In this document: piece by piece, positions 2,913 through 32,734 of the stretch
How positions within the stretch are numbered: the stretch's first letter is position 1
Layout: every line of letters begins with the position of its first letter
Virus record (IMG/VR): IMGVR_UViG_2541047946_000018
Coordinates: 1-38,363 of that record
Direction: 5' to 3' (one strand)
DNA: 38,363 nucleotides
Origin: a virus
Taxonomy: Duplodnaviria; Heunggongvirae; Uroviricota; Caudoviricetes
Translations under genes and position numbers: made by a program
Notes under the pieces: generated by a model
Told to the model about the DNA's origin: nothing
What the model saw: the letters and a program-made list of their open reading frames with translations, nothing else
Database searches by the model: none

Positions 2913-3605
2913 ATGAATACCAAACCTTCCATCTTTTCCTTTGAGTCATCCTGCCAGATCCGTATGTTCATGATTGACGGAGAACCTTGGTTTGTCACCA
3001 AAGATGTGTGCAATGCTTTGAATATTGATGTTACACAAGCGAGAAAACTTGATAAAAAAGGCTGGAACAAAAAGGGGCTGTATTCAATACAGACCCCTGG
3101 TGGAATACAAGAACTATCCATCGTTTCAGAATCAGGTCTCTACATCCTTATTCTGCGTTGCAAAGAGGCAATGACTGAGGGAACGAGAGCATTCAGATTT
3201 CTTGAATGGGTTACAGGTGAGGTTCTTCCTCAGATCCGCCGCACCGGAAGTTACATTAAAAACTCGCTCCCGCAGGAAGAACGCATAAAGATGGTTGCCG
3301 ACCAGGTAGCCAACGCCACAGCATCAGCAGTGATGCAGGCAATGAAGATAGAGAACAAAACCTACAGCGCCCCGCTGAAGCCCGGCTACCGTAGCCTGAT
3401 TCATTCTCCGTCTGGTGTTCTCGGCCTGACGGAGAACTCACTGCTGATGAATCTGCTGAACCAGTTACAGGAAGACGGGCACGACGTATCGGGCGCGGCG
3501 GCGGAGCTGACCACCATGTTCTGCTACATCGTTGGTGTGAGCAAATGCCTGCGTGATATCCAGACGCACGCGGAGTACATCAACGACAAGGCAGGGTTCT
3601 TCTGA
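2913..3605 (+). CDS. Bro-N domain antirepressor-like protein
   Basis: ATG 2913 with AGGTGA RBS. N-terminal Bro-N signature (IRMFMIDGEPWFVTKDVCNALNI); C-terminal domain homologous to the 1272..1529 product. Confidence 0.7.
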   Translation: MNTKPSIFSFESSCQIRMFMIDGEPWFVTKDVCNALNIDVTQARKLDKKGWNKKGLYSIQTPGGIQELSIVSESGLYILILRCKEAMTEGTRAFRFLEWVTGEVLPQIRRTGSYIKNSLPQEERIKMVADQVANATASAVMQAMKIENKTYSAPLKPGYRSLIHSPSGVLGLTENSLLMNLLNQLQEDGHDVSGAAAELTTMFCYIVGVSKCLRDIQTHAEYINDKAGFF

Positions 3606-3614
3606 CAGAACGGC

Positions 3615-3640
3615 GGCACAGGGATGTGCCTTTAAATAAT
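3615..3640 (+). terminator. Possible intrinsic terminator after the Bro-N gene
   Basis: GGCACA-ggga-TGTGCC hairpin followed by TTTAAATAATT. Confidence 0.3.
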
Positions 3641-3677
3641 TCTGTACAGATTGCAGACTGTGGGTGAATAGCGTACT

Positions 3678-3694
3678 ATTACCTTAAAGGTAAA
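3678..3694. promoter_or_regulatory. Operator site ATTACCTTAAAGGTAAA overlapping a candidate promoter (TTGCAG-17 bp-TACTAT)
   Basis: Palindrome 42 bp upstream of ATG 3736. Confidence 0.55.
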
Positions 3695-3735
3695 CCTGTT
3701 TTTATTTTATACCTGTAACTTACCGGAGATTAAAG

Positions 3736-4062
3736 ATGACAAAACTTGGATTCGTGATGAGAGGTCCGGTAAGAAGCGGAACTCATGCAAAGCGTAGCAA
3801 GAGTCGTATTTTTACTGGTAAGGTTGTAGCACGTAAATCAGCTATTGGCTCGTTCAATAGTGAAAATGCGGCATTGCGCCATATTTTTATCAGCACAAAG
3901 CCAAGAGCATCCGCTGATGTGCATACAATGTCTATTCCTATCACAAAGAATATAAAGCGGATAAAAAAGCTCTCATCTGCAGAATCAAAAGAGATATCTT
4001 TCCGCCAGCTTAACTCATTAGAAACGCATATGAAGGAAGAGGAATTCGATGTTTTTGAGTGA
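3736..4062 (+). CDS. Small basic partner protein of YafO-like paralog B (putative antitoxin), acidic C-terminus
   Basis: ATG 3736 with GGAG RBS; stop overlaps the downstream start by 14 nt. Confidence 0.5.
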   Translation: MTKLGFVMRGPVRSGTHAKRSKSRIFTGKVVARKSAIGSFNSENAALRHIFISTKPRASADVHTMSIPITKNIKRIKKLSSAESKEISFRQLNSLETHMKEEEFDVFE

Positions 4063-4561
4063 GTATAGCGGGAAGGTTATACCTACTGGTGAGTTTAAAA
4101 CTGATGACTTTCTGATTTCGCTAAAAGATGCTTTTAAACAACACTGGCGTCATGGTCATCATCCTGATCTGGGAAAAGATACTCTTTTTGAAAGACCAGA
4201 GGAAGTATTAGGCTTCCATCTCAGAAAGGTTCATGTCAATATTGGTGAATATGCATCATATTCATACTCATGTACTGAACAGTGTTGGGATGAGTGGTCA
4301 TATGGATTGATTGATGAACAAGGAAATTACAGGCCAAAACCAACCAGTAACGCATATCTCATATATGCAGTCAATGAAATAAGAGATGCAGCCTTACTAG
4401 CTTATTGGGACCCGCCCGCACACACCAAAGCTAACGCAAAAGTTTGGATGGATTCCGTATTGAATTTCACAAAATTATTTCATGAACGAACGAATACAGC
4501 TCCACTTAGTAGAAATGTTTATCCGTGGGATTATTCGTACAAATCCAAAAAGCCTGCATAG
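4049..4561 (+). CDS. YafO-like putative toxin, paralog B
   Basis: ATG 4049 with GAAGGAAGAGGAA RBS; same motif set as paralog A. Confidence 0.55.
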   Translation: MFLSEYSGKVIPTGEFKTDDFLISLKDAFKQHWRHGHHPDLGKDTLFERPEEVLGFHLRKVHVNIGEYASYSYSCTEQCWDEWSYGLIDEQGNYRPKPTSNAYLIYAVNEIRDAALLAYWDPPAHTKANAKVWMDSVLNFTKLFHERTNTAPLSRNVYPWDYSYKSKKPA

Positions 4562-4642
4562 TAGTTTTTTATGGACGAAACAAAAGTCAGTGCTACACTC
4601 ATTGACGCCACATTGAGGTGGTTTATAGATGGAAATTTCACA

Positions 4643-4804
4643 ATGAAAAAAGCATTTGCTGCACTGTTCGTTTTGTTGTCTCTGGTAGCTTCAACTCAGG
4701 CCTTTGCCGGTCGTTGTCAGCACGACAGCGACACTGCTGCTGACGGCTCCCGCTGCGGTGGGCGTTCTGCGGATTCCCGCCCGGGTGGCGGTGGCATTCG
4801 TTAA
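4643..4804 (+). CDS. Possible small secreted peptide (53 aa), third gene of the paralog-B operon
   Basis: Canonical Sec signal MKKAFAALFVLLSLVASTQAFA; no terminator between 4561 and this ORF; terminator immediately after. Confidence 0.35.
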   Translation: MKKAFAALFVLLSLVASTQAFAGRCQHDSDTAADGSRCGGRSADSRPGGGGIR

Positions 4805-4810
4805 AAACAA

Positions 4811-4832
4811 GGCCGCGAAAGCGGCCTGTTTG
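4811..4832. terminator. Bidirectional intrinsic terminator between convergent genes
   Basis: GGCCGC-gaaa-GCGGCC hairpin flanked by AAAAACAA upstream and TGTTTG downstream. Confidence 0.65.
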
Positions 4833-4833
4833 A

Positions 4834-5685
4834 TCACTGTGCAGTTTTCGCTGATCGATTTTCAGCTCTAAATTCAAGAACCGTTTCAATATTTCTTTCC
4901 TTCAGCATATCAATAACATTTTTATTCATTTGACTATCACTGGTTAATAACTGGTAAACGTTGCTTCTCTCTTTATCAGAGTTTTCTTTAACAGCTGCTT
5001 TGCATGCCAAATGCTTATTGAAATTTTCTACATCGCTAGTACAGGAATTTACGGCTGCTGATGAAATATCAGACGCTGAAGAAACACCATCATCCAAACG
5101 TTTTATAGCATTTTCTATACATGAGTTAAGGGAATAAACGACAACTGAGCGATACCCTTCAGACGCACACCATTCTAAATTTCTTGAAGGATCGAGTGGT
5201 TTTACTTCGCTGGATTGAATTAACTTGTCAAAAACTGACTTATATTCAATCTGTTTTTTATCTATAGCCCATACTTCAGTAGCTGATTTATAATTCCCCG
5301 TATGCCTATTAACATCAAACCCATGTTTTATAAGCAAATCTGCCCATGAAAGATTTATTGATTCATTGTTATGAGGCCATTTTCCTGTCAGAACCGCCCC
5401 CATAGACCCCATATATCCGCCATATGATGGTATAGCACCATGGCTCAGTAACTTCTCAGCAACCACAGGGCAATTAATTACATAAGAGGCGTAAAGCCCA
5501 TTCCATAAAGCCCCTCTATAGTAATCGCCACGATTAGGTTCTTTTAAGTCGATAGCCTTTGATAATTGTTCACACGTTTTGCATGCATCAAAGTTATCCT
5601 TATTGCATTGCAATGAACTGGCAGCTGTAGGATTTACAGAGACTATTGAAAGCACTATGCCAAAAAACAAATTTATTTTTTTCAT
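4834..5685 (-). CDS. AT-rich moron: secreted protein with possible ankyrin-like repeats
   Basis: Signal peptide MKKINLFFGIVLSIVSVNPTAASS; ANK-like segments (LLSHGA, LLIKHGFDVN); low GC versus neighbours; starts 1 nt after the gp16-like stop. Confidence 0.6.
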   Translation of the reverse strand: MKKINLFFGIVLSIVSVNPTAASSLQCNKDNFDACKTCEQLSKAIDLKEPNRGDYYRGALWNGLYASYVINCPVVAEKLLSHGAIPSYGGYMGSMGAVLTGKWPHNNESINLSWADLLIKHGFDVNRHTGNYKSATEVWAIDKKQIEYKSVFDKLIQSSEVKPLDPSRNLEWCASEGYRSVVVYSLNSCIENAIKRLDDGVSSASDISSAAVNSCTSDVENFNKHLACKAAVKENSDKERSNVYQLLTSDSQMNKNVIDMLKERNIETVLEFRAENRSAKTAQ

Positions 5686-5686
5686 C

Positions 5687-8600
5687 CTATTTCATCTGTT
5701 CTTCAACTTTATTTAGTAATGGTGATATCGCCCACAGATTCTGAAAAGGTAGCATTTTACGGACAGCGTGGGTTTGCTGGCTGTCAAATTCTCCGTTAAG
5801 TACACCATTCGCAACCGTCGCGGCATCACCGCCAAGATCAAAGGTAGGACCAAGTAAAGCACCAATAGCATTACGACTCTGAAACCTTGATACCGGAGGC
5901 GCACCAAACATCGCGCCAAGACCAAACCTACCGCCGCTTATGTTCTCAACGGTATTCAGCGGCTCAGAGAGCCAGCCAAGCATTCCGCCCCGGTCGATCC
6001 CCTCTTTCACAAGGTTATTCCAGCTGTAGTCAATATCGCGACCGCTTAACTTCTGTTTCATCATATAGACCATTGAGCCAAGCGCAATCGTGCCAAGCGC
6101 ACCAAGATAGAATGCAGCATCGCCCTGCTGGATACCAGATACCAGCACCCTGTTATGCTGTGCGAAGATAAACGTTTTGAACTGCGTGATCATCTTCCAG
6201 CCTTCTTTACTAAAAAACAGCGGTGTATCACCTACGCCAGGCGTTACAATCACTGAGTCTACATCTTTCAGCACTGCAGACTGGAAAATCTCTCTAGCGA
6301 AACGGTCATCCCACAGATGACTATGCCCGGTTAACAGCCCGTCCATATCCTCTCCGTGCTTCCCGAATTGCTCCCCGATTCGGCGCAGAACATCTTCATT
6401 GATGCCGACCTGTGCCATCTTCCGCATTTCACTTTTGGAGAGCGTGCCACCAGCAGAAACTTGGCGAGCCGCGTCAAGTATCCTCGACTGCACTATCATC
6501 CCGGACCATGATTTAAGTGCGCTGTTCCACTGATTCATCAGCGTCCAGTTACCGAATTTCTGCGTCATCCAGTTCAGACCTCGCTCAGCGGCGCTTCTCC
6601 GGCTATAGGGGTCAGTAAGATCCGCTATAGCCTTTGTACGCGTAGACAGGACATAATCAAGCCCAACGGCCATTTCTCGCAAATCCCTGGTTGCAATTTT
6701 CACTGAGTCCATATTTTTAAGCATGCTTACCATTGGTCCGAGAGATTTTCTCAGGCCATGCTGCATCATCGGTCGCATCAGATCAGTTGCAGCGGAGACA
6801 GTCATTCCACCAAGCAAACGGAGGAAGTTAATATTCCTAGCAACTCGCCCGGCACGAACAAAGAAACTGCGTGGATCTTGAGGTGCACCGTAAGTACCAA
6901 GCAGTCGATCACGCATAGCCGTAATATCCCTAATATCAGCCTCCCGTTGCTTCTCAAGAACTGCACGTCGTTTAGGTGTTTTAGCCTCTTTTATTAGCCG
7001 GGTATATTCCTCACTAACCTGACGGATTTGCTCCCCCATATCTTTACGGCCAAACTGCGCAGTCAGCTCAATTTCTGGTGCCACCTGCCGGAGATAACTT
7101 TCCATGATGTAGTTAACATCTGATTCAAGAAAATCTTCTATACGCTCATCAGGAATAAGCAGCGTTCTGCTTTTAGTGAAACCAGCCCGACCAACGAGTC
7201 TCTCTGGGATAATATCGGCTGGTACAAGCCCGGAAGGTGCGCCTATTATTTTATTCACGATCTCGTCAGCAGCGTCCTCTGCTTCCTCTCGGGATAGAGG
7301 CTCCATCTGCTTCAGTGCTCGTTCGCGGCTTGCATTCAGCCTTGTGGTTGAATTTGCCCGTTTTTGCAGTCGGCGAAGCTCAGAACGATATTTCCGTGGA
7401 TTATCCAACAACTCCATATGACGCTGATAGACAGGAAGCTCACTCTTTGCCTGCGCTATATCATCAAGGCGTGTTTTAAGGTCAGAGCTTTCTTTCATCA
7501 TTCTTGCCTGAAGTTTTTCTGATGAAGTCTCGGCCAACTCTTTTTCTATTCTTGTAAGACGCGCCTGTGTGTCAGTCTCCTGAGATATAAGCTTATTTCG
7601 TTTATCCAGTTCTTCCATGAGTAGAATTTTTTTACCAGACCATTTCTCCGCTTCAGCGATTTCACTAGCGAGAGCATCAGCGCGCGGTGCCGATTCCTCT
7701 GCAGTTTTTAGCAATGAATTTATCCTTTCAATTCGCTGACCTGCTTTGTCAGCACCTTTGGCACTAATCCCTTGTATCCAGTTGGCAATTCGCCCTCTGA
7801 ATTCAGTGCGGTCGGAAAGTATCTTATCGAACTTATAAATGCGGGGAAGATAACTTTTCGCCGTCACGACATCGATATCCTCAGGAAGGATCCCCAGTTC
7901 CTGCATACGGGCTTTTGTGGTCTCGAAAATGGGGCGGATTCTAGCGGCTGCTTGTGAAACCTCAGGAATATCACTCTGATCACCACGGCGCATAGCCATG
8001 CCAACAGCTTCATTGAAATCAATAAAGTTCATCCTCTTCACGCCGCGGGCGCTAACAGATTTGCTGTACTGCTGGTAAGCATCACGAGTGGCTTCCATCT
8101 GCTTATAAAGCATGGCGTCGTATTGCTTAATCTTAGTCTCGACTGCCGTAAACGTAGCCAACCCCTCATCATTTTTGGCGAAGAAATAGTTATTTTCGGC
8201 AAGCTGCTGGTTAATCTGACGGGAGACAAGAGATGGTGATTGCGCCAAGCGGCCAGCAGGAGTGACACTCAACGTTTTGTTAGCAAGTCCAAGTCCAGCG
8301 AGCTGTTCCTGATCGAGTGTGGTATTGAAAACCTGAGCTGCACCAATGCTTTGAGGAGAATCCATACCTCGCAAATGATTACCTACTGAGTTAACCACTG
8401 CCTCGCGCGCGCCAGGTCCAGCAAGTAGCTGTGCACCAGCACCAAGGATCCCACCAACGAGAGCATCAACAACAACGTTCGATACGCTCTCCATCGGTGA
8501 GCGAGCTTCCTGAGTGGCCTGTAATGCGGCCTCTGAAGCAACACTGCCAGCAGCATTCGCCAGGGCAAAACGCCCGGCTGTTTCTGCAATACGACCGCCA

Positions 8601-19845: not shown

Positions 19846-20138
19846 TCCTGTTCACTGGCCTCTTTGGCCATCTTCAAATACTGTTCAGGGCAATGCGCCA
19901 TAACGCGCTGAAACAGTTCCAGCGCCAGATTGCATTGCCCCTCATTAAATGCCATTGCCATAGCGTCCATCGGTGAGATAGCGGAAAACACACGGCCTTT
20001 CTCCAGCACCGACCAGACAACGCGACGCCCCTGTTCACTGCTCATGACAAAGCGAATGTCATCAATTTCACGCTGTGCCATGTCACGTTGCTTACGGGCG
20101 TTTTCTTCTTTCAGTTGATCATCTTCGTAATCTGTCAT
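19842..20138 (-). CDS. Hypothetical protein (98 aa) between portal and scaffold genes
   Basis: ATGA-type overlaps on both sides. Confidence 0.45.
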   Translation of the reverse strand: MTDYEDDQLKEENARKQRDMAQREIDDIRFVMSSEQGRRVVWSVLEKGRVFSAISPMDAMAMAFNEGQCNLALELFQRVMAHCPEQYLKMAKEASEQE

Positions 20139-21814
20139 TGTGATTGCCCACCCTGACCACTAACTGCATTCGCCATAGCTGACAAAACACTCGGATCCGA
20201 AGTTTTAGCTTCGCTTAGCGTCTTGGCACCCTGTGCCGCCGCCATCCCCATCGCCATCATTTGTTGCTGCTGTTGTTGCTGTGCCCGTTGCTGGCGAGCC
20301 TGCTCAACCTGTTCCTGCGGAACAATGACGGTTGGAGACACTCCGGACATATCAGCGAATGCATCGATCGCCTGATCAACGTTGAGTTTGTCGAGAGCTT
20401 CTGGTTTCGCTTGCGCAAGTTGACCAATGAAGTTAACCGTGGACGCCAGACTGGACAGGCCGATAGACTTCTGCGCCTGAGCCATGACGGAAATGTATTC
20501 GACCTTCAGGGGCATGCCTTCCATCGCGTCAGGCGGTGGCGGCAGCATGTTTTTGCGCACCATCATCGAGAAAGCGCGGTCAATGAGAGGATTAAGACAT
20601 TCGTCGTTCAGACGCTCCAGAACCGGCCCCAACATCAGAAGTTTTTCTTCTTTCATTTCGATCACCGCTTCAACAGGCATCGAGCGGGTATTGATGTTCT
20701 GCAACATCATGAACAGATCGACAAAGTAGGCGCTGTTAATGATTTGACGAGTGTCCTGAATGTCTGCCACCAAATCTGCTGTACTGGGGTTAACCAGATA
20801 AGCAGGCCTGAAGCCATCCTGACCAGTAATCTGATCGATATACGTGATGTCGCCAGGAAGAAGGGAGGCGCGCTGATTCTTGAGGGAAGTCGGAGCAACC
20901 ATCGGCGGATTGGTGGCTTTATCAATCAACTGCGACTTGCGCTTCTGGAGAAGCTGCAATGCCTTAACAGGTCCAAGCGCCAGCATACCCGGGCATGATG
21001 ATCCATAAACATCTTCGCCGTTAACTTCCCAGCGCGGAGCCATAATTGGAAACTCATCGAATCCGGACTCACGCAACAACTTGTCGTTATCGCCACCAAC
21101 CTCGTAATAAACCGATTTGAATGGCTTGTTCTTGCTATCCAGCTTCGATGTATCGCGGTCAATGTTCGGGTAAACCGAATGCATCACTTCGATCCACTTC
21201 TCGTAGGTGCCGCTTTCCCACATGCTTTTTACGGATTCGCTGACGTTATTTAGCCCGAACTCCTGAACAAGCTGACGAACAGTCATAGAGAACTTGCGAA
21301 AACAGGTGTCAACACTGCCACGAGGTGAGTTAGCCAGGTAGTAACTGCCTATCGGGAATGGCATTGTGCGAATGATGTCCTCGTCATCCTCCAGCACTGC
21401 CATTGCACCAGTGCTGTATGTGCCGAGGCTTCCGTATAACTGCGGAAGAGACTGGTAGAGATTCGACTTATTGAACATATCGTTCATGCGGTTCTGAACT
21501 GCCTCAAGCCACAACTTAACAGGGCCATAATCCATCATTTCAGGATCTGGCGTAGCCAGGCGAAACCACGGACGCGCGGGGCTTGTGATGCCTGACATCA
21601 TGCCGCTGGCGAGAGTGCGCGCCGCCATAGTCCCGGTCGAATCAATAATGCGTGTATTGCGCCGATCGTTACGGTTGGCCTCAGAAGTCAGAAAGCGGGA
21701 ACCACGCGGGTTGATGTAATCACTCAACTCGCGCCAGTGCGGCTCGAACGACTGACGCTCGCTTTCAAGTTGTGCGAACTGTTTGTTCAATCGCTCTTTA
21801 GTTGTTTCCGCCAT
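20135..21814 (-). CDS. Portal (head-to-tail connector) protein, T7 gp8-like (559 aa)
   Basis: C-terminal QQRAQQQQQQQMMAMGMAAAQGA tract resembling the T7 gp8 C-terminus; size and position. Confidence 0.75.
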   Translation of the reverse strand: MAETTKERLNKQFAQLESERQSFEPHWRELSDYINPRGSRFLTSEANRNDRRNTRIIDSTGTMAARTLASGMMSGITSPARPWFRLATPDPEMMDYGPVKLWLEAVQNRMNDMFNKSNLYQSLPQLYGSLGTYSTGAMAVLEDDEDIIRTMPFPIGSYYLANSPRGSVDTCFRKFSMTVRQLVQEFGLNNVSESVKSMWESGTYEKWIEVMHSVYPNIDRDTSKLDSKNKPFKSVYYEVGGDNDKLLRESGFDEFPIMAPRWEVNGEDVYGSSCPGMLALGPVKALQLLQKRKSQLIDKATNPPMVAPTSLKNQRASLLPGDITYIDQITGQDGFRPAYLVNPSTADLVADIQDTRQIINSAYFVDLFMMLQNINTRSMPVEAVIEMKEEKLLMLGPVLERLNDECLNPLIDRAFSMMVRKNMLPPPPDAMEGMPLKVEYISVMAQAQKSIGLSSLASTVNFIGQLAQAKPEALDKLNVDQAIDAFADMSGVSPTVIVPQEQVEQARQQRAQQQQQQQMMAMGMAAAQGAKTLSEAKTSDPSVLSAMANAVSGQGGQSQ

Positions 21815-21828
21815 TTCAATGACTCCGG

Positions 21829-22035
21829 TTACTGACCAAGCAGCGTTTTACCGCTGGTATTAGCGGTTGATGTGTCGCCCTGAGAACCGGTAAGCAGCGT
21901 AGAACTACGACCAGCAGCAGCGCGACGGCGACGTGTTTCTTCGTCGCGGGCATCAACAACGGCGGCATCCTGCTCCTGTGGTGCTGCCTGAACTTCTGGT
22001 GTTGCAGGCACTGATGGTGAGCTACCCATGCACAT
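21829..22035 (-). CDS. Small disordered virion protein (T7 gp6.7/7.3-like composition)
   Basis: 68-aa Ala/Gln/Thr-rich ORF with GGAG RBS immediately upstream of the portal gene; the alternative frame 21816..22055 looks like junk. Confidence 0.45.
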   Translation of the reverse strand: MCMGSSPSVPATPEVQAAPQEQDAAVVDARDEETRRRRAAAGRSSTLLTGSQGDTSTANTSGKTLLGQ

Positions 22036-22124
22036 ATCAATGACTCCGTACGCAATTAAATTATTACCAATTTAACCACATATGATTTATTTATCGTAGA
22101 AGGTTGACATTTAACGCGTGAATT

Positions 22125-22141
22125 ATTACCTTTCGGGTAAC
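22125..22141. promoter_or_regulatory. Operator site ATTACCTTTCGGGTAAC with adjacent TTGACA -35 hexamer (22104..22109), AACCACATA element (22074..22082) and half-site (22063..22068)
   Basis: Same cassette architecture as at 1128..1196, 2590..2646 and 29686..29764. Confidence 0.55.
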
Positions 22142-22220
22142 CAAAGAGCTCATTCCGGTTACTAACCTGACTGGCTTGTCGTTAAATTAAACAGGTGGAG
22201 TGAGCTTTTATTTTGAGCAG

Positions 22221-22360
22221 TACGGCGTATGGCACATGCGCCGATAGCGGTCTGGATACGTTTAAGGGGCACCCTCCCTTGCTCGGGCAAACGAACCAGG
22301 TAGCCGGAATGTGCAAGTCGAGCGGTTTTATTCCGCGCACGGGGATTCACCATCCCGGCG
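22221..22360 (+). repeat. Conserved non-coding element, copy B (leader upstream of tRNA-Arg), homologous to 2724..2870
   Basis: Same ordered sequence blocks as copy A; GC-rich; no ORF of 60 aa or more on the plus strand. Confidence 0.4.
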
Positions 22361-22462
22361 ATTCGGTGTGACGCCTCGGAAGAGACGAGGGTACAACGAT
22401 GAGAGCATTTATGGAGCCGCGACAAAGTGTGGCGCCTTAACAGGCTAAGTGCTCTCAGCGTT

Positions 22463-22539
22463 GTGGCATTAGCTCAGTTGGACAGAGCAACCGCCTTCTA
22501 AGCGGTTGGTCGCAGGTTCGAATCCTGCATGCCACGCCA
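22463..22539 (+). tRNA. tRNA-Arg (anticodon UCU), argU-like
   Basis: Cloverleaf: acceptor GTGGCAT/ATGCCAC, D-arm TAGCTCAGTTGGACAGAGC, anticodon stem ACCGC/GCGGT with loop CTTCTAA, T-arm GCAGGTTCGAATCCTGC, discriminator G plus CCA; close to E. coli argU. Confidence 0.9.
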
Positions 22540-22582
22540 GAATCACGCCTAAGGACCGTGATGCCAGAAGTTCCAGGTGCTT

Positions 22583-22627
22583 GGCGGTGATGGTTTCCCT
22601 TGAAGGACTATCACCGCCCTTTTTACA
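22583..22627 (+). terminator. Intrinsic terminator downstream of the tRNA
   Basis: GGCGGTGAT...ATCACCGCC stem followed by CTTTTT. Confidence 0.55.
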
Positions 22628-22702
22628 GCAGGACGCCATTGCGATGACTTCATGCTGTAAACCCGTACAGCCACGGAAGGCATAACTCATTGCTTCCAGT
22701 TC

Positions 22703-22727
22703 GCCCGGTTCGCCGGGCATTTTTTTG
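22703..22727 (+). terminator. Intrinsic terminator
   Basis: GCCCGG-ttcg-CCGGGC hairpin followed by ATTTTTTT. Confidence 0.7.
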
Positions 22728-22741
22728 CTTGATGACCGCAA

Positions 22742-22758
22742 ATTACCTTAAAGGTATA
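22742..22758. promoter_or_regulatory. Operator site ATTACCTTAAAGGTATA overlapping a TATAAT hexamer (22755..22760)
   Basis: Palindrome immediately upstream of the moron ORF. Confidence 0.55.
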
Positions 22759-22761
22759 ATC

Positions 22762-23580
22762 ATGAAAAACTTCAAGGTAATTAGCATGTTTGAATCGTTT
22801 AAAGAGCTGTTTTTATCTACTGCCAATACTGCCGTGAATCGAGCCAAAAACCCTGTGCTTGGTGCTTTTGTTATGTCCTGGTGCGCCTTCAACTGGAAAT
22901 CAATTCTTTATCTATTTTTTAGCAAATCAAACATAATAGATAAAATTTCATATATCTCAGATAACAGCACATGGAAAACTGTTATGTTTTATCCATGCTT
23001 ATCTGTAATTGCTATCTGCTGCCTATTACCATGGGTAAACAATATCATTAACGTATGGCAAGCAAAGCCTCTTGATAATAATGACTCAATCGAAAATCAC
23101 CTGAAGGCAAGAAAAATCCAGCGTGAAACCAGACTGCAGAGGTTATTGGCTAAAAAAGATGTTACATACGACAAAGTTAAGACTGGCGCGGAAAAAGACA
23201 TCCAAGAGATGAAAGAAGAGATTATTCGATCAAAGAATAGTATGGGGGAATTGACTGCTGAGTTGAAAGCTAAAGATGACGAATTGAGATCCGCCAGTGC
23301 TCAGTTAGCAGCTCTAAATCATTCATTAAAAGAGATATCGGAAACTCTTGGAAGAATGAATGAGGCATATAAGACCCTCCAAAATGATTTCGACGAATAC
23401 AAACTCAAATACCCTGAAAAATCTCAAATAAAAAGTCTTGCACTTGGCAACGGCCAAACAATTAGCAACTTTTTGGAGCAACACAACTTATCCGGATTAA
23501 AATCTGGTAAGCCAGACGTTTTTAATAACTTTGGTGTTCTATCTGGATTATCAGGTTTCGAGGATAAAAATAAAGACTAA
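22762..23580 (+). CDS. AT-rich moron: membrane protein with two predicted TM helices and a long C-terminal coiled coil; candidate superinfection-exclusion or abortive-infection factor
   Basis: Start ATG 22762 or 22786 (both have RBS); hydrophobic segments VLGAFVMSWCAFNWKSILYLFF and VMFYPCLSVIAICCLLPWV; low GC; stop codon overlaps the TerL stop tail-to-tail. Confidence 0.6.
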   Translation: MKNFKVISMFESFKELFLSTANTAVNRAKNPVLGAFVMSWCAFNWKSILYLFFSKSNIIDKISYISDNSTWKTVMFYPCLSVIAICCLLPWVNNIINVWQAKPLDNNDSIENHLKARKIQRETRLQRLLAKKDVTYDKVKTGAEKDIQEMKEEIIRSKNSMGELTAELKAKDDELRSASAQLAALNHSLKEISETLGRMNEAYKTLQNDFDEYKLKYPEKSQIKSLALGNGQTISNFLEQHNLSGLKSGKPDVFNNFGVLSGLSGFEDKNKD

Positions 23581-25052
23581 GCATATGGATCGTACTCGGT
23601 AAGCGCCTTGCCTTGCTGGTTCTGCTGCCCGGGAAGTCGCAGGCGCTTCGACACCGGGAAAGCAAACGTCAGCAGCAGCGCATCGCCTTTACCCGGCGAA
23701 CGCCCAAGTCGCTCTTTGATATCTTCCTTCGGTTCGATAACGATTTTACCGTCCACTCGAACTTTGTACTCTGCCGCCGACAGGTCGTCTGCAGTTTCCT
23801 GGTCATCCAGCATGCCGCCCAGCCTCAGCCATGTCTTACATGAGTTGAACATCTCCCCACGCTTGTTGAGCATCTGCGGGTCAGTAGACGCGCCACCGAA
23901 CGGAACAAGTTGCCATGTACGACCCCAGCCGTCACCGATTGACTTCAGACCAGTTCCGTAACCGAAGTCGATGAACACTGCGTCAGCCTGGTACTGGTCT
24001 TCAAAGTCAGCGATACGCTTCGCCATAATCAGATCGTCAGTGGTCTTGTTGCCAGTCCACAGCACCTTACTGTGCAGCCCCTGCCGCAGGTATATCACAG
24101 CGTCATCAACGCCTGAGTATGCCGGGTCAACGCCGATTATCACCGGAGCATGTGCAACCTGCGCAGCGGTGACCACCCGTTTCATTGCCTCGTCAGTAAG
24201 TCCGGTAGGGATAAACTGCAATTCAGATGCATCCGGGAATATGCCGCGCACACGGATTTTAACGAAGTCGCTGTCTTCCCCGTAGTCATCAACCCATTTC
24301 TGCAACTGCTGTTTGTTGGTGCCTTCCACCGTCCGGCTGTCAATCTGCGCAGTTTTCCAGCGGTGTTTATATTTGCGGAAACATTCGCGGAAACGTCCGG
24401 TATTACGCGTCGGGTTTCCGAACGCCACCCAGATAATCTCAGTGTCTTCGTCCGTTAGCGCACCCTCGGCAACTTCCCACACCAGATCCGCAATGTTCGA
24501 CGCTTCATCGAATACCACGATGATGCGTTTGCGCTCGTTGTGTAGTCCGGCGAATGCCTCAGTGTTGTGCTCAGACCAGGGTATTGCGTCAGCTCGCCAC
24601 CGCTTGTCGTGTCCAGGATCATTGCTGTACATCGCGGTAGCGGTACAGGTAAACCAGTCTTTCGTGATAGCAAGGTTCGACCACTTGATAATTTCCGGCC
24701 AGGTCTTCGTTCGTAGCTGGTTGTCGGTGTTGGCGGTCACCACAACCTTACAATCCTCGCAAGTGGACATGCCCCAGTTGATCAGCATTGAGATGAATGC
24801 GGATTTACCAATACCGTGACCCGAAGCGCGTGCCAGCATAAGCGGCTGATAGCGCGTCTCTGGATTCTGCAGGTGATCACGTATCTCTCGGAACGCATCA
24901 GCCTGCCACTGACGTGGACCGGTGGCATGTGCCAGTTCAGTCCCATCTTCCCCCCACGGGAACGCATAGAGGGCATAGCCAAGCGGATCGTGAGTGAACC
25001 CTGCAATATCCTCGATTAACTGCTCTTCAGGAGATAACGCTGTATCTGTCAC
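23577..25052 (-). CDS. Terminase large subunit
   Basis: P-loop SGHGIGKS and C-terminal nuclease-like Asp motifs; ATGA overlap with the upstream TerS gene. Confidence 0.8.
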   Translation of the reverse strand: MTDTALSPEEQLIEDIAGFTHDPLGYALYAFPWGEDGTELAHATGPRQWQADAFREIRDHLQNPETRYQPLMLARASGHGIGKSAFISMLINWGMSTCEDCKVVVTANTDNQLRTKTWPEIIKWSNLAITKDWFTCTATAMYSNDPGHDKRWRADAIPWSEHNTEAFAGLHNERKRIIVVFDEASNIADLVWEVAEGALTDEDTEIIWVAFGNPTRNTGRFRECFRKYKHRWKTAQIDSRTVEGTNKQQLQKWVDDYGEDSDFVKIRVRGIFPDASELQFIPTGLTDEAMKRVVTAAQVAHAPVIIGVDPAYSGVDDAVIYLRQGLHSKVLWTGNKTTDDLIMAKRIADFEDQYQADAVFIDFGYGTGLKSIGDGWGRTWQLVPFGGASTDPQMLNKRGEMFNSCKTWLRLGGMLDDQETADDLSAAEYKVRVDGKIVIEPKEDIKERLGRSPGKGDALLLTFAFPVSKRLRLPGQQNQQGKALTEYDPYA

Positions 25053-25645
25053 TGATTACCATCCTGACGTTCTTTGAGTCGCTTCCTGGCTGCTGCTATG
25101 CGATCAGCAATTGTCACATTCACATTAACATCCAGACGTTCTTTGAATGCGTTGACATCAACATGCTTACCAATCAGCTCAAGGTTCTTCACCTTGTCAG
25201 GCCATTTAATTTTTTTGAGGATTGTCTCTATTGAATCCTCGTTCATGTTCATGATGGTCGATGACAGATCAAAGCCACTAAGCGTAGTGCGCCAGATTTT
25301 CGGCCACTCACGGATTGGTTTAAGGCTCCCATCGTCGTTGAGGATGTCGATCACGTCCATCTGGTCGATCTCCACCAGGCGCATGAGAACGTAATCAGCA
25401 CTGACACGCATTCGTTTGTTGCGCTCCTCCATCAACTCGGCAATCCGTTTCTGAATGCGTTCATCGCGCATCATGACACTGGCTTTAACTGCCGCTGTAT
25501 TTGGGGAGAATCCTGCGTTAATCGCAGCCTGAGTCTGGTTTTCAGGCGTTTTGATGTATGACTGGCAATAAGCCTCCTGCATTGCTGTGAGCGGCTTAAA
25601 TTGCGTTGATTTGCGTTTATAGGTTTTAGGTTCAGCAGGCATCAT
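25049..25645 (-). CDS. Terminase small subunit
   Basis: Position immediately upstream of TerL; start taken at ATG 25645 (the track ORF extends to 25723 through an upstream terminator and operator). Confidence 0.55.
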   Translation of the reverse strand: MMPAEPKTYKRKSTQFKPLTAMQEAYCQSYIKTPENQTQAAINAGFSPNTAAVKASVMMRDERIQKRIAELMEERNKRMRVSADYVLMRLVEIDQMDVIDILNDDGSLKPIREWPKIWRTTLSGFDLSSTIMNMNEDSIETILKKIKWPDKVKNLELIGKHVDVNAFKERLDVNVNVTIADRIAAARKRLKERQDGNQ

Positions 25646-25661
25646 AACCACCGTGGTAATT

Positions 25662-25678
25662 GTTACCGTTGTGGTAAT
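25662..25678. promoter_or_regulatory. Operator site GTTACCGTTGTGGTAAT just upstream of the TerS start, with extra half-site GGTAAT at 25655..25660
   Basis: Consensus TTACC-N5-GGTAA palindrome. Confidence 0.5.
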
Positions 25679-25687
25679 AATACCATG

Positions 25688-25714
25688 CAAAATAAAGCCG
25701 CCATAGTTGGCGGC
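25688..25714 (-). terminator. Intrinsic terminator on the minus strand between the nin-like operon and TerS
   Basis: GCCGCC-aactat-GGCGGC hairpin followed by TTTATTTTG on the minus strand. Confidence 0.5.
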
Positions 25715-25763
25715 AGTATTCAAAATCCATCAAATTCATCATGCATAATCTACTCGTGACATG

Positions 25764-29685: not shown

Positions 29686-29702
29686 TTTACCTCTGAGGTA
29701 AT
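29686..29702. promoter_or_regulatory. Operator site TTTACCTCTGAGGTAAT abutting the nuclease start codon
   Basis: Consensus palindrome; AACCACATA element at 29707..29715. Confidence 0.55.
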
Positions 29703-32149: not shown

Positions 32150-32734
32150 ATGAAAAGTATCCAGGACGTCCGCAGGCAAAATCTCAACGACTTGATCGAC
32201 CGTGAATTCAATGGTGTTCAGACGCGGATGGCTGAAAAACTTGGAACTCAGGCAAATCTGGTAAACCGCTGGGCTCTTGGCAAGAAGGTTATCGGCGACC
32301 AGGTTGCACGAAAAATTGAAGCTGCCGCCAATAAACCCCGTAACTGGCTTGATATCGATCGCTCGCTTTCTCAGGAAGGTTTTCAGCCTGTCGGCCCAAG
32401 CGACATTGGCCAGCTGGCGGCTCACAACCTGGAACGCTGGATGAGCGAAAGCCGCGACCTTTCAACACAGGGAAAACTTCACCGCGCATCCGGCGTAGCC
32501 CAGGTGACAATCAGCCGCCTGTTAAACAATGAGGTCAGCGTTTCCATTTCCACCCTGGAGAATGTTGCATCCGCATTCGGGCGTCACGGCTATGAATTAC
32601 TGATTCACCCGCACGACCCTGCGACCATCAACTATGATCGCTCGCGCTACGCATTGTTACCCGAAACCGAGAAAGCAAAGATCGAAAGTTACATTGAATT
32701 TGTCATCAACCAGAACGAAAAAAACAAACAATAA
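32150..32734 (+). CDS. CI-like repressor with two HTH domains and no recognisable S24 autopeptidase domain
   Basis: Two XRE-type HTH segments; no GDSM/Ser-Lys dyad region; position between the operator clusters. Confidence 0.6.
   Translation: MKSIQDVRRQNLNDLIDREFNGVQTRMAEKLGTQANLVNRWALGKKVIGDQVARKIEAAANKPRNWLDIDRSLSQEGFQPVGPSDIGQLAAHNLERWMSESRDLSTQGKLHRASGVAQVTISRLLNNEVSVSISTLENVASAFGRHGYELLIHPHDPATINYDRSRYALLPETEKAKIESYIEFVINQNEKNKQ

Follow-up and report, generated by a model that had tools for sequence, protein, structure and literature searches.

A probable mobile accessory gene for a predicted membrane-anchored coiled-coil protein of PHROG 4780 beside the terminase of an epsilon15/phiV10-like prophage

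The 38,363-nucleotide (nt) stretch of DNA analyzed here (IMG/VR virus record IMGVR_UViG_2541047946_000018; hereafter the window) is an epsilon15/phiV10-like (Uetakevirus) Escherichia coli prophage, and the gene under study is a plus-strand coding sequence at 22786–23580, 264 amino acids (aa) plus the stop codon, that lies between the tRNA-Arg and terminase genes; its product belongs to PHROG 4780 and is predicted to be a coiled-coil protein anchored in the membrane. It is very probably a mobile single-gene accessory cassette, or moron, with its origin in the epsilon15/phiV10-like podoviruses, and it is probably gated by the phage repressor, the operator-like sequence in its promoter suggesting that it would be expressed with int on infection or induction. 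For the protein, an exclusion or abortive-type function is the reading that we favor, with a rough probability of 40%.

Distribution and Mobility of the Gene

The DNA on either side of the gene (21800–22726 and beyond 23580) is ~98% identical to phiV10 and the O157 typing phages, and no DNA-level match to the open reading frame (ORF) itself was found in deposited phages. At an identity of at least 99%, the ORF was present in 37 of 5,426 complete E. coli genomes, adjoining a gene annotated as "terminase." The gene had been predicted to follow two terminators, and both were located, each with its T-run. Intrinsic terminator 1 (22583–22626, plus strand) is a 14-bp stem followed by CCUUUUU (hairpin 22583–22618; −22.8 kcal/mol, z −5.0), and intrinsic terminator 2 (22703–22727, plus strand) is formed by GCCCGG-TTCG-CCGGGC followed by A and seven T residues (hairpin 22703–22718; −12.7 kcal/mol, z −2.7). 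Homology to phiV10 and epsilon15 stops at terminator 2, and the variable cargo starts directly after its T-run.

Eighty IMG/VR phages with a terminase large subunit (TerL) at least 98% identical (loci L094–L173) were compared, and both anchors of the cargo segment, terminator 2 and the end of TerL, could be placed in 78 of them. The segment between the anchors ranged from 146 to 1,307 nt. The slot was empty in four loci, and elsewhere it held a 61-aa gene (two loci), a Tad2-like gene (PF11195, E-value 3e-24; one locus), a 110-aa gene (three loci), Acb4-family genes (PF13876, E-value 9e-35; 35 loci, including phiV10p03 and epsilon15p50), a 135–140-aa gene (21 loci), or an AT-rich 115-aa gene (one locus); the membrane coiled-coil family (PHROG 4780) was carried by 11 of the 80 loci. 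The membrane gene sits directly after terminator 2 in nine of these, after an Acb4-like gene in L166, and after the remnant of an empty slot in L159. PF11195 is Tad2, an anti-Thoeris sponge. PF13876 is Acb4, an anti-CBASS sponge family (PMC11722364; 10.1101/2025.07.12.664507). The small cargo genes start 12–24 nt past the terminator T-run with only a ribosome-binding site (RBS; AAGGTGAG) and have a bidirectional terminator downstream, whereas the membrane gene forms a module apart, with a promoter but no terminator of its own. The 61-aa protein matches the C terminus of the 135–140-aa protein, and the unknown small gene families of the slot, at least four in number (61, 110, 115, and 135–140 aa), are candidates for new anti-defense genes.

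Other alleles of the membrane gene occupy the equivalent slot of E. coli, Salmonella, and Klebsiella Uetakeviruses. Lambdoid Klebsiella phages carry the promoter-gene unit too, within their replication/nin region and oriented against the neighboring genes, and a Cronobacter chromosomal islet holds it intact, with no phage genes nearby; the background was non-Uetakevirus in 10 of 69 IMG/VR loci. Among these, L003 and L011 keep ~220 nt of the tRNA-distal Uetakevirus leader upstream of the gene, and L063 and L056 have a C-terminal fragment of TerL downstream of it. The presence of such leader and TerL fragments beside exported copies indicates that transfer was out of the Uetakeviruses and illegitimate. 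Distant members occur as lone genes in an SSU5-like phage-plasmid and in the accessory regions of Vibrio inoviruses, and one lies beside DinI, a KAP NTPase, and PerC. When 50,697 phage records were searched by tblastn, members turned up in only eight (Uetakeviruses, prophage-derived phages, and Vibrio inoviruses) and in no recognizably virulent phage. The gene is mostly on the strand opposite to the surrounding phage operons. With a polymorphic slot and a unit that recurs in unrelated phage types, the original prediction of a self-contained, horizontally acquired accessory gene is upheld.

Coding Sequence and Composition

Two ATG codons are candidate starts, at 22762 (272 aa, the NCBI call) and at 22786 (264 aa). 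The second is equivalent (MLESLKE...) in 36 of 36 aligned homologues and is also where the PHROG profile begins. It is preceded, 8 nt upstream, by the RBS AAGG (22774–22777, plus strand), with AAGG, AAGAG, or GGG at the equivalent place in homologues. ATG 22762 lies 2 nt past the −10 hexamer and is missing outside this lineage; together with the possible starts at 22690 (TTG) and 22732 it was rejected as unconserved, and it coincides with the transcription start. The coordinate given earlier for the start, 22742, is out of frame and corresponds to the first base of the operator palindrome described below.

A GC content much lower than that of the neighboring genes had been noted, and both measures used here are outliers: the GC of the ORF (0.366) is the lowest among all 795-nt segments of the sequence (mean 0.486, standard deviation 0.036), and GC at third codon positions is 0.36 in the ORF versus 0.61 in TerL. 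The TAA stop codon (23578–23580) overlaps the TAG of TerL on the minus strand (23577–23579) by 2 nt, so that the expected tail-to-tail overlap with TerL, on the strand opposite to the late operon, is present. No terminator was found between the ORF and TerL, and in other alleles the gene ends 0–10 nt from the TerL stop. Shortened alleles of 62, 100, 198, and 163 aa were also observed (L040, L087, L099, and protein P0027), the 163-aa form having 29 member sequences; loss of the gene is sometimes by point mutation instead of cassette replacement.

Promoter and Operator

A predicted sigma-70 promoter lies at 22732–22760 (plus strand; 10/12), with the −35 element ATGACC (22732–22737), a 17-nt spacer, and the −10 hexamer TATAAT (22755–22760). 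The pattern (A/G)TGAC(C)-17-TAnAAT is kept in ~35 different upstream sequences that represent several phage backgrounds. An operator-like palindrome, ATTACCTTAAAGGTATA (ATTACC-TTAAA-GGTATA; 22742–22758), occupies the spacer and reaches four bases into the −10 hexamer, its right half serving at the same time as the −10 sequence (GGTATAAT). Sites marked "repressor" in the epsilon15 record, ATTACCTTTTAGGTAAT and ATTACCGTTTTGGTAA, follow the pattern ATTACC-N5-GGTAAT, and ATTACCTTAAAGGTATA departs from TTACC-N5-GGTAA at one of the 10 bases that this motif specifies. The same 17-mer, identical in every position, is found 40 nt upstream of the phiV10 integrase gene.

With up to one mismatch allowed, TTACC-N5-GGTAA has 15 sites in the window versus 0.61 expected, and 100 shuffles gave at most five. 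The match belonging to the gene is at 22743. Four sites (32032, 32080, 32792, and 32854) flank a cI-like gene (32150–32734), and others stand at the heads of units, at terS (25645 and 25663), in the tRNA/gp3 intergenic region (22126), and at 29687/29749, 31695, 3679, 2506/2631, and 1181. Most other transcription units, those of terS and the structural genes among them, thus begin with a site, an arrangement that suggests a repressor regulon of dispersed sites, as in P1 or with stoperators, instead of a single OL/OR pair. Operator control of the gene, as predicted originally, is supported at the level of sequence, the palindrome matching the phage operator motif and overlapping TATAAT, and the core TACC-N5-GGTA is found at −43/−44 in nearly all alleles. 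Because the operator covers the −10 hexamer, the gene is predicted to be silent in the lysogen, unlike classical exclusion genes expressed from the prophage. Late expression may be limited further, since in the absence of a terminator between the ORF and TerL late terL transcription would run antisense through the gene.

The core is also retained in 7 of the 10 non-Uetakevirus loci, with one mismatch in L011. These core-retaining loci hold no other copy of the motif, save for two degenerate core matches (L063 and L083), and the proteins that they encode share no more than 61–81% identity with the nearest sampled Uetakevirus allele, too low an identity for recent export to be a well supported explanation of the palindrome there. 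Outside the Uetakeviruses, the palindrome could be a relic or be constrained by another factor. An inverted repeat with 16-nt arms (22738–22753/22770–22785) was considered as an RNA hairpin or a large operator and was rejected, as its right arm is the RBS region and it is unconserved in homologues. The 5′-untranslated region gave no folding signal (z −0.1).

Protein Architecture and Family

Hydropathy and AlphaFold2 (AF2) agree with the original prediction of two N-terminal hydrophobic helices and a long coiled-coil C-terminal region. Hydrophobic segments are located at residues 23–45 and 63–92 of the 264-aa protein. The AF2 model, built with 131 diverse homologues, has a mean predicted local distance difference test (pLDDT) score of 84.5, an earlier model from 37 close homologues having reached ~60 in the membrane part. 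Modeled helices comprise residues 2–20, 23–35, 37–45, and 50–60, followed by a single continuous helix from 63 to 208, in which the second hydrophobic helix runs into the coiled coil; beyond residue 210 the tail is of low confidence (pLDDT <55). Over the 131 sequences the net charge averages +1 at the N terminus, −0.9 in the loop of 17 residues, and +2.2 following helix 2, which by the positive-inside rule would place both termini inside and the coiled coil in the cytoplasm. The predicted arrangement is an inner-membrane hairpin with both termini cytoplasmic and a ~17-residue periplasmic loop, from which helix 2 is modeled to continue as a ~115-residue cytoplasmic coiled-coil stalk ending in a disordered tail. 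DNA binding of the bZIP type by the basic juxtamembrane helix was considered and rejected, because the signature does not fit and the Pfam matches are sub-threshold.

The protein is divided into a conserved N-terminal module (residues 1–160; 22786–23265, plus strand) and an exchangeable C-terminal module (residues 161–264; 23266–23577, plus strand). The former is composed of an amphipathic helix, the two hydrophobic helices, the basic juxtamembrane helix, and the start of the coiled coil, and the latter of the rest of the coiled coil (to residue ~208) and a Gly/Ser/Asn-rich tail. Arg19, Pro23, Gly26, Phe28, Trp32, Asn36, Trp37, Pro70, and Pro82 are nearly invariant across the superfamily, even at 20–30% overall identity. 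Such near-invariance of polar and aromatic residues inside membrane helices goes beyond what a mere anchor would need. Beyond residue ~160 the family members carry discrete cassettes that cannot be aligned to each other. Compared with a 274-aa allele, the N-terminal half has a nonsynonymous divergence (dN) of 0.038 and a synonymous divergence (dS) of 0.46 (ratio ~0.08) and the C-terminal half is a different cassette; compared with a Salmonella allele the pattern is reversed, the common C-terminal cassette being the closer (dS 0.75) and the N-terminal half saturated. The opposite divergence of the two halves shows the gene to be a mosaic of two exchangeable modules. Many members have a short Lys/Asp/Asn-rich ending (KDKDKD, NKD, KKD, or NDK), here at ~23550–23577, and such an ending is also seen in the distant proteins P0130, P0148, P0160, and P0172, whose C-terminal regions are unrelated; the ending may be a short linear motif.

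Membership in PHROG 4780 is clear (E-value 2.3e-137, 458 bits; residues 9–272 of the 272-aa form aligned to positions 1–267 of 275), and PHROGs 13369 and 35327 are linked more weakly. PHROG 4780 is a catalogued family without an assigned function, and membership consequently explains nothing about mechanism. An exhaustive profile search gave 2,466 representative clusters (50% identity) at an E-value of at most 1e-3 and 365 at 1e-10 or below; in nearly all of the 150 best matches the module is N-terminal, and the proteins are mostly of 200–400 aa. A profile from the diverse N-terminal alignment found only 14 close matches in a set of 5.8 billion proteins, with no informative names and no domain fusions, and matches from a pattern scan of genome contigs gave none that was confirmed. 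No paper characterizing the PHROG 4780 family was found in the literature, and the DefensePredictor paper proved to have no bearing on it.

Searches of Pfam, NCBIfam, and PADLOC with the protein, and of Pfam with 20 distant members including the longest, returned only sub-threshold coiled-coil noise. Neither SieB, T4 Imm, and the other exclusion families defined in Pfam nor PF13876 (Acb4) and PF11195 (Tad2) matched the membrane protein. PADLOC-DB 2.0 gave no significant system match, the best being DndD (E-value 3e-5, 21 bits), and the noise hits (DndD, LmuB, JetC, and PbeC) pair residues ~107–258 with coiled-coil arms in SMC-like proteins. Queried with the protein and an N-terminal profile, the PDB gave no sequence match below an E-value of 0.2, and Foldseek found no fold matches in the PDB or BFVD. 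Similarity to holins, spanins, Kil, or CIII was not found in Pfam or PHROGs, nor did these databases yield the homology to a virion or lysis protein that would have spoken against an accessory role.

Proposed Function and Alternatives

In the mechanism that we propose, a resident repressor would keep the gene low in the lysogen and the gene would fire like int on infection or induction, with constitutive expression where no such repressor is present. [quoted passage not shown] As an outcome, competing phages could be kept from entering or from becoming established, or else the membrane could be perturbed when the C-terminal module encounters its cue. A role in conflict is favored by the restriction of the gene, a lone and self-promoted unit, to accessory loci of elements that are temperate or chronic, and by its being kept in a chromosomal islet; by analogy, exchangeable C-terminal cassettes would be typical of conflict systems.

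Several points weigh against an exclusion or abortive-type function. Silence in the lysogen would fit poorly with a defense that is needed before a superinfecting phage arrives, and the bulk of the protein is modeled in the cytoplasm, whereas many entry blockers act in the envelope. In every allele, position 5 of the half-site sets the operator-like site of the gene apart from those of the backbone, a deviation that makes the strength of repression uncertain. Truncated alleles are fairly common, which indicates that the gene is dispensable, and Pfam, NCBIfam, PADLOC, the PDB, and BFVD gave no homology evidence for any function. Finally, the same slot otherwise carries the anti-defense sponges Acb4 and Tad2, and for this reason counter-defense is a serious rival.

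As a counter-defense factor, the product would be an early, repressor-gated membrane protein that shields the infecting or induced phage from host immunity; it could neutralize membrane-acting signaling effectors or abortive systems, its variable C-terminal cassette tracking host targets. We regard this main rival as unlikely. The gene lies in or beside a slot with Acb4-family (PF13876) and Tad2-like (PF11195) sponges (PMC11722364; 10.1101/2025.07.12.664507) and co-occurs with an Acb4-like gene in L166, the operator-promoter design is that found before phiV10 int and implies expression early in infection, and both the variable C terminus and the lysogen silence predicted from the operator would fit. 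Unlike the sponge genes, however, it is a separate module under its own promoter. It stands mostly on the strand opposite to the surrounding operons. It was found only in temperate or chronic elements and the chromosomal islet and not in virulent phages, where anti-defense genes are common, and its architecture, for which no homology was found, is not known from any anti-defense protein.

Somewhat less likely again is a helper of the lytic cycle or of the lysogeny decision, which would act on a host membrane process upon derepression to benefit yield or lifestyle choice, with cell division (Kil- or EzrA-like), FtsH/Hfl proteolysis (CIII-like), and lysis timing as candidate processes. Repressor-operator control, an inner-membrane anchor joined to a cytoplasmic coiled coil, and the dispensability of the gene are all consistent with such a role. 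Conserved host targets would nevertheless leave the discrete, exchangeable C-terminal cassettes unexplained, and the retention of the gene in inoviruses and in a chromosomal islet is a poor fit. Moreover, phages of this group encode a complete lysis cassette at another place in the genome (holin, endolysin, and Rz/Rz1 in phiV10), and the searches above showed no holin, spanin, Kil, or CIII similarity.

An improbable alternative is that the gene, carried as cargo with its own promoter, serves lysogenic conversion or host fitness in a way that has nothing to do with phages (for example in the tolerance of envelope stress, in adhesion, or in colonization). The classical moron features of the gene, its place among the accessory genes of f237-like Vibrio inoviruses, a region in which host-phenotype genes occur, and its retention in Cronobacter chromosomes could be read in this way. 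Almost all of the protein is predicted to be cytoplasmic or membrane-embedded, though, with ~17 residues exposed to the periplasm; the operator suggests an off state in lysogens; and cassette-like C-terminal variation, more typical of conflict systems, would be poorly explained. A chance ORF in AT-rich filler DNA without function, for which the existence of truncated copies might be cited, is effectively refuted by the 2,466 clusters, the N-terminal dN/dS of ~0.08, the conserved start, RBS, and promoter, and the confident AF2 model.

It is possible, albeit doubtful, that the gene represents a large unrecognized family, spread over tailed temperate phages, phage-plasmids, and inoviruses, of single-gene, membrane-acting phage-conflict proteins, made of a two-helix effector and swappable coiled-coil cassettes and wired into the Uetakevirus repressor regulon; the family would then constitute either a new exclusion or abortive system firing on infection or induction or the first membrane-anchored counter-defense factor. 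If a phage-conflict function is true, a widespread single-gene family, catalogued as PHROG 4780 and unrecognized by Pfam, PADLOC 2.0, NCBIfam, the PDB, and BFVD, would be added to the catalogue of defense and counter-defense; if there is no phenotype, the gene is an ordinary uncharacterized moron. The natural swaps of C-terminal cassettes provide a ready route to mapping specificity, and the tRNA-terminase slot of epsilon15/phiV10-like phages can be mined for further anti-defense or defense genes.

Neighboring Features of the Prophage

On the minus strand, TerL (23577–25052, identified by its phiV10 and epsilon15 homologue annotation) is convergent with the ORF and is adjoined by TerS (25049–25723), and a gp3-like gene (21829–22035) and the portal gene (20135–21814) lie on the other side of the slot. 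The plus strand carries a tRNA-Arg (22463–22539; ARAGORN) with anticodon UCU, which reads AGA and matches the Rfam tRNA model with 73 bits, and Rfam returned nothing else over 21700–23800. AGA accounts for four of the eight Arg codons in the AT-rich cargo gene (22786–23580) versus none of the 29 in TerL, and the phage tRNA-Arg(UCU) may serve AT-rich cargo. A minus-strand 90-aa ORF (22469–22741), antisense to the tRNA and terminators, is annotated as the hypothetical protein phiV10p04, with similar calls in other records; it overlaps the tRNA, and the annotation is probably spurious.

The unit of leader, tRNA, and cargo is headed by a promoter-like TTGACA (22104–22109) with the operator ATTACCTTTCGGGTAAC (22125–22141), both on the plus strand, and the equivalent of this operator is annotated "repressor" in the epsilon15 record. 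Judged from its sequence, the 22104–22141 element is tentatively the promoter of the plus-strand unit (leader, tRNA, and the small cargo genes in related phages); its −10 element is weak (TACCTT), and the consensus scan did not list it. Between this region and the tRNA lies a leader of ~320 nt (22140–22462). It is 74–83% conserved among relatives from Klebsiella and Salmonella, its folding is moderately more favorable than that of shuffled sequences (z −2.5), and no Rfam family matched it. In the epsilon15 record, an RNase III site is annotated at the corresponding place. An inverted repeat in the leader with 18-nt arms (22622–22661, plus strand) is conserved at the sequence level and was rejected as a structured RNA, since there are no compensatory changes and a G-to-C change at arm position 7 (L012 and L004) is uncompensated.

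Other AT-rich stretches of the window, at 1600–2200 and 3500–5700 (GC 0.37–0.42, with an operator at 3679), are likely extra accessory cargo near the tail-fiber end. They contain ORFs at 3736–4062 (PHROG 5933), 4049–4561 and 1554–2165 (PHROG 1651), and 4834–5685 (PHROG 6118). The E. coli duck isolates HL15 and SF10 have the gene both in the chromosome and in a 41,027-bp "plasmid" record (NZ_CP079771.1 and NZ_CP079768.1). As this length matches the size of the phage genome, the record is probably an excised circular phage, which points to an active prophage.

Comparison with Known Systems

Among known systems, the classical morons (HK97 gp15, lambda bor, and lom) share with the gene an insertion between backbone genes, a promoter of their own, AT-rich DNA, presence/absence polymorphism among close relatives, and often a membrane protein as product. 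The gene differs from them in having no downstream terminator of its own and in its operator-like site, owing to which it would probably not be expressed from the repressed prophage, the hallmark of a moron.

P22 SieA is an inner-membrane superinfection exclusion protein in which the motif FxRYPxEAxxFNK is conserved (PMC10883804). Like the gene studied here, it is a single prophage accessory gene of temperate enterobacterial podoviruses with an inner-membrane product and divergent sequence types. The most conserved motif of SieA is predicted to face the cytoplasm, and SieA is sufficient alone (PMC10883804). The motif is absent from the PHROG 4780 protein, and no PHROG or Pfam link between the two was found. 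SieA is, moreover, a multi-pass protein without a coiled coil that is expressed from the prophage and whose function has been shown, whereas an exclusion role for the present gene is inferred.

The two-transmembrane-helix effectors of CBASS, Pycsar, and Thoeris resemble the protein in their N-terminal pair of hydrophobic helices, in a variable cytoplasmic C-terminal part, and in the idea of oligomerization in the membrane. They differ in that the gene studied here is solitary, lacking a nucleotide-binding sensor domain and a partner cyclase or TIR protein, in that a long coiled coil replaces the globular sensor, and in the lack of a PADLOC match beyond noise. With the Acb4 (PF13876) and Tad2 (PF11195) genes it has in common the hotspot from tRNA-Arg/terminator 2 to TerL, the strand, and a variable presence. 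The products of those genes are, in contrast, small, soluble, and unrelated in sequence and fold, and the genes themselves have a bidirectional terminator and no promoter of their own.

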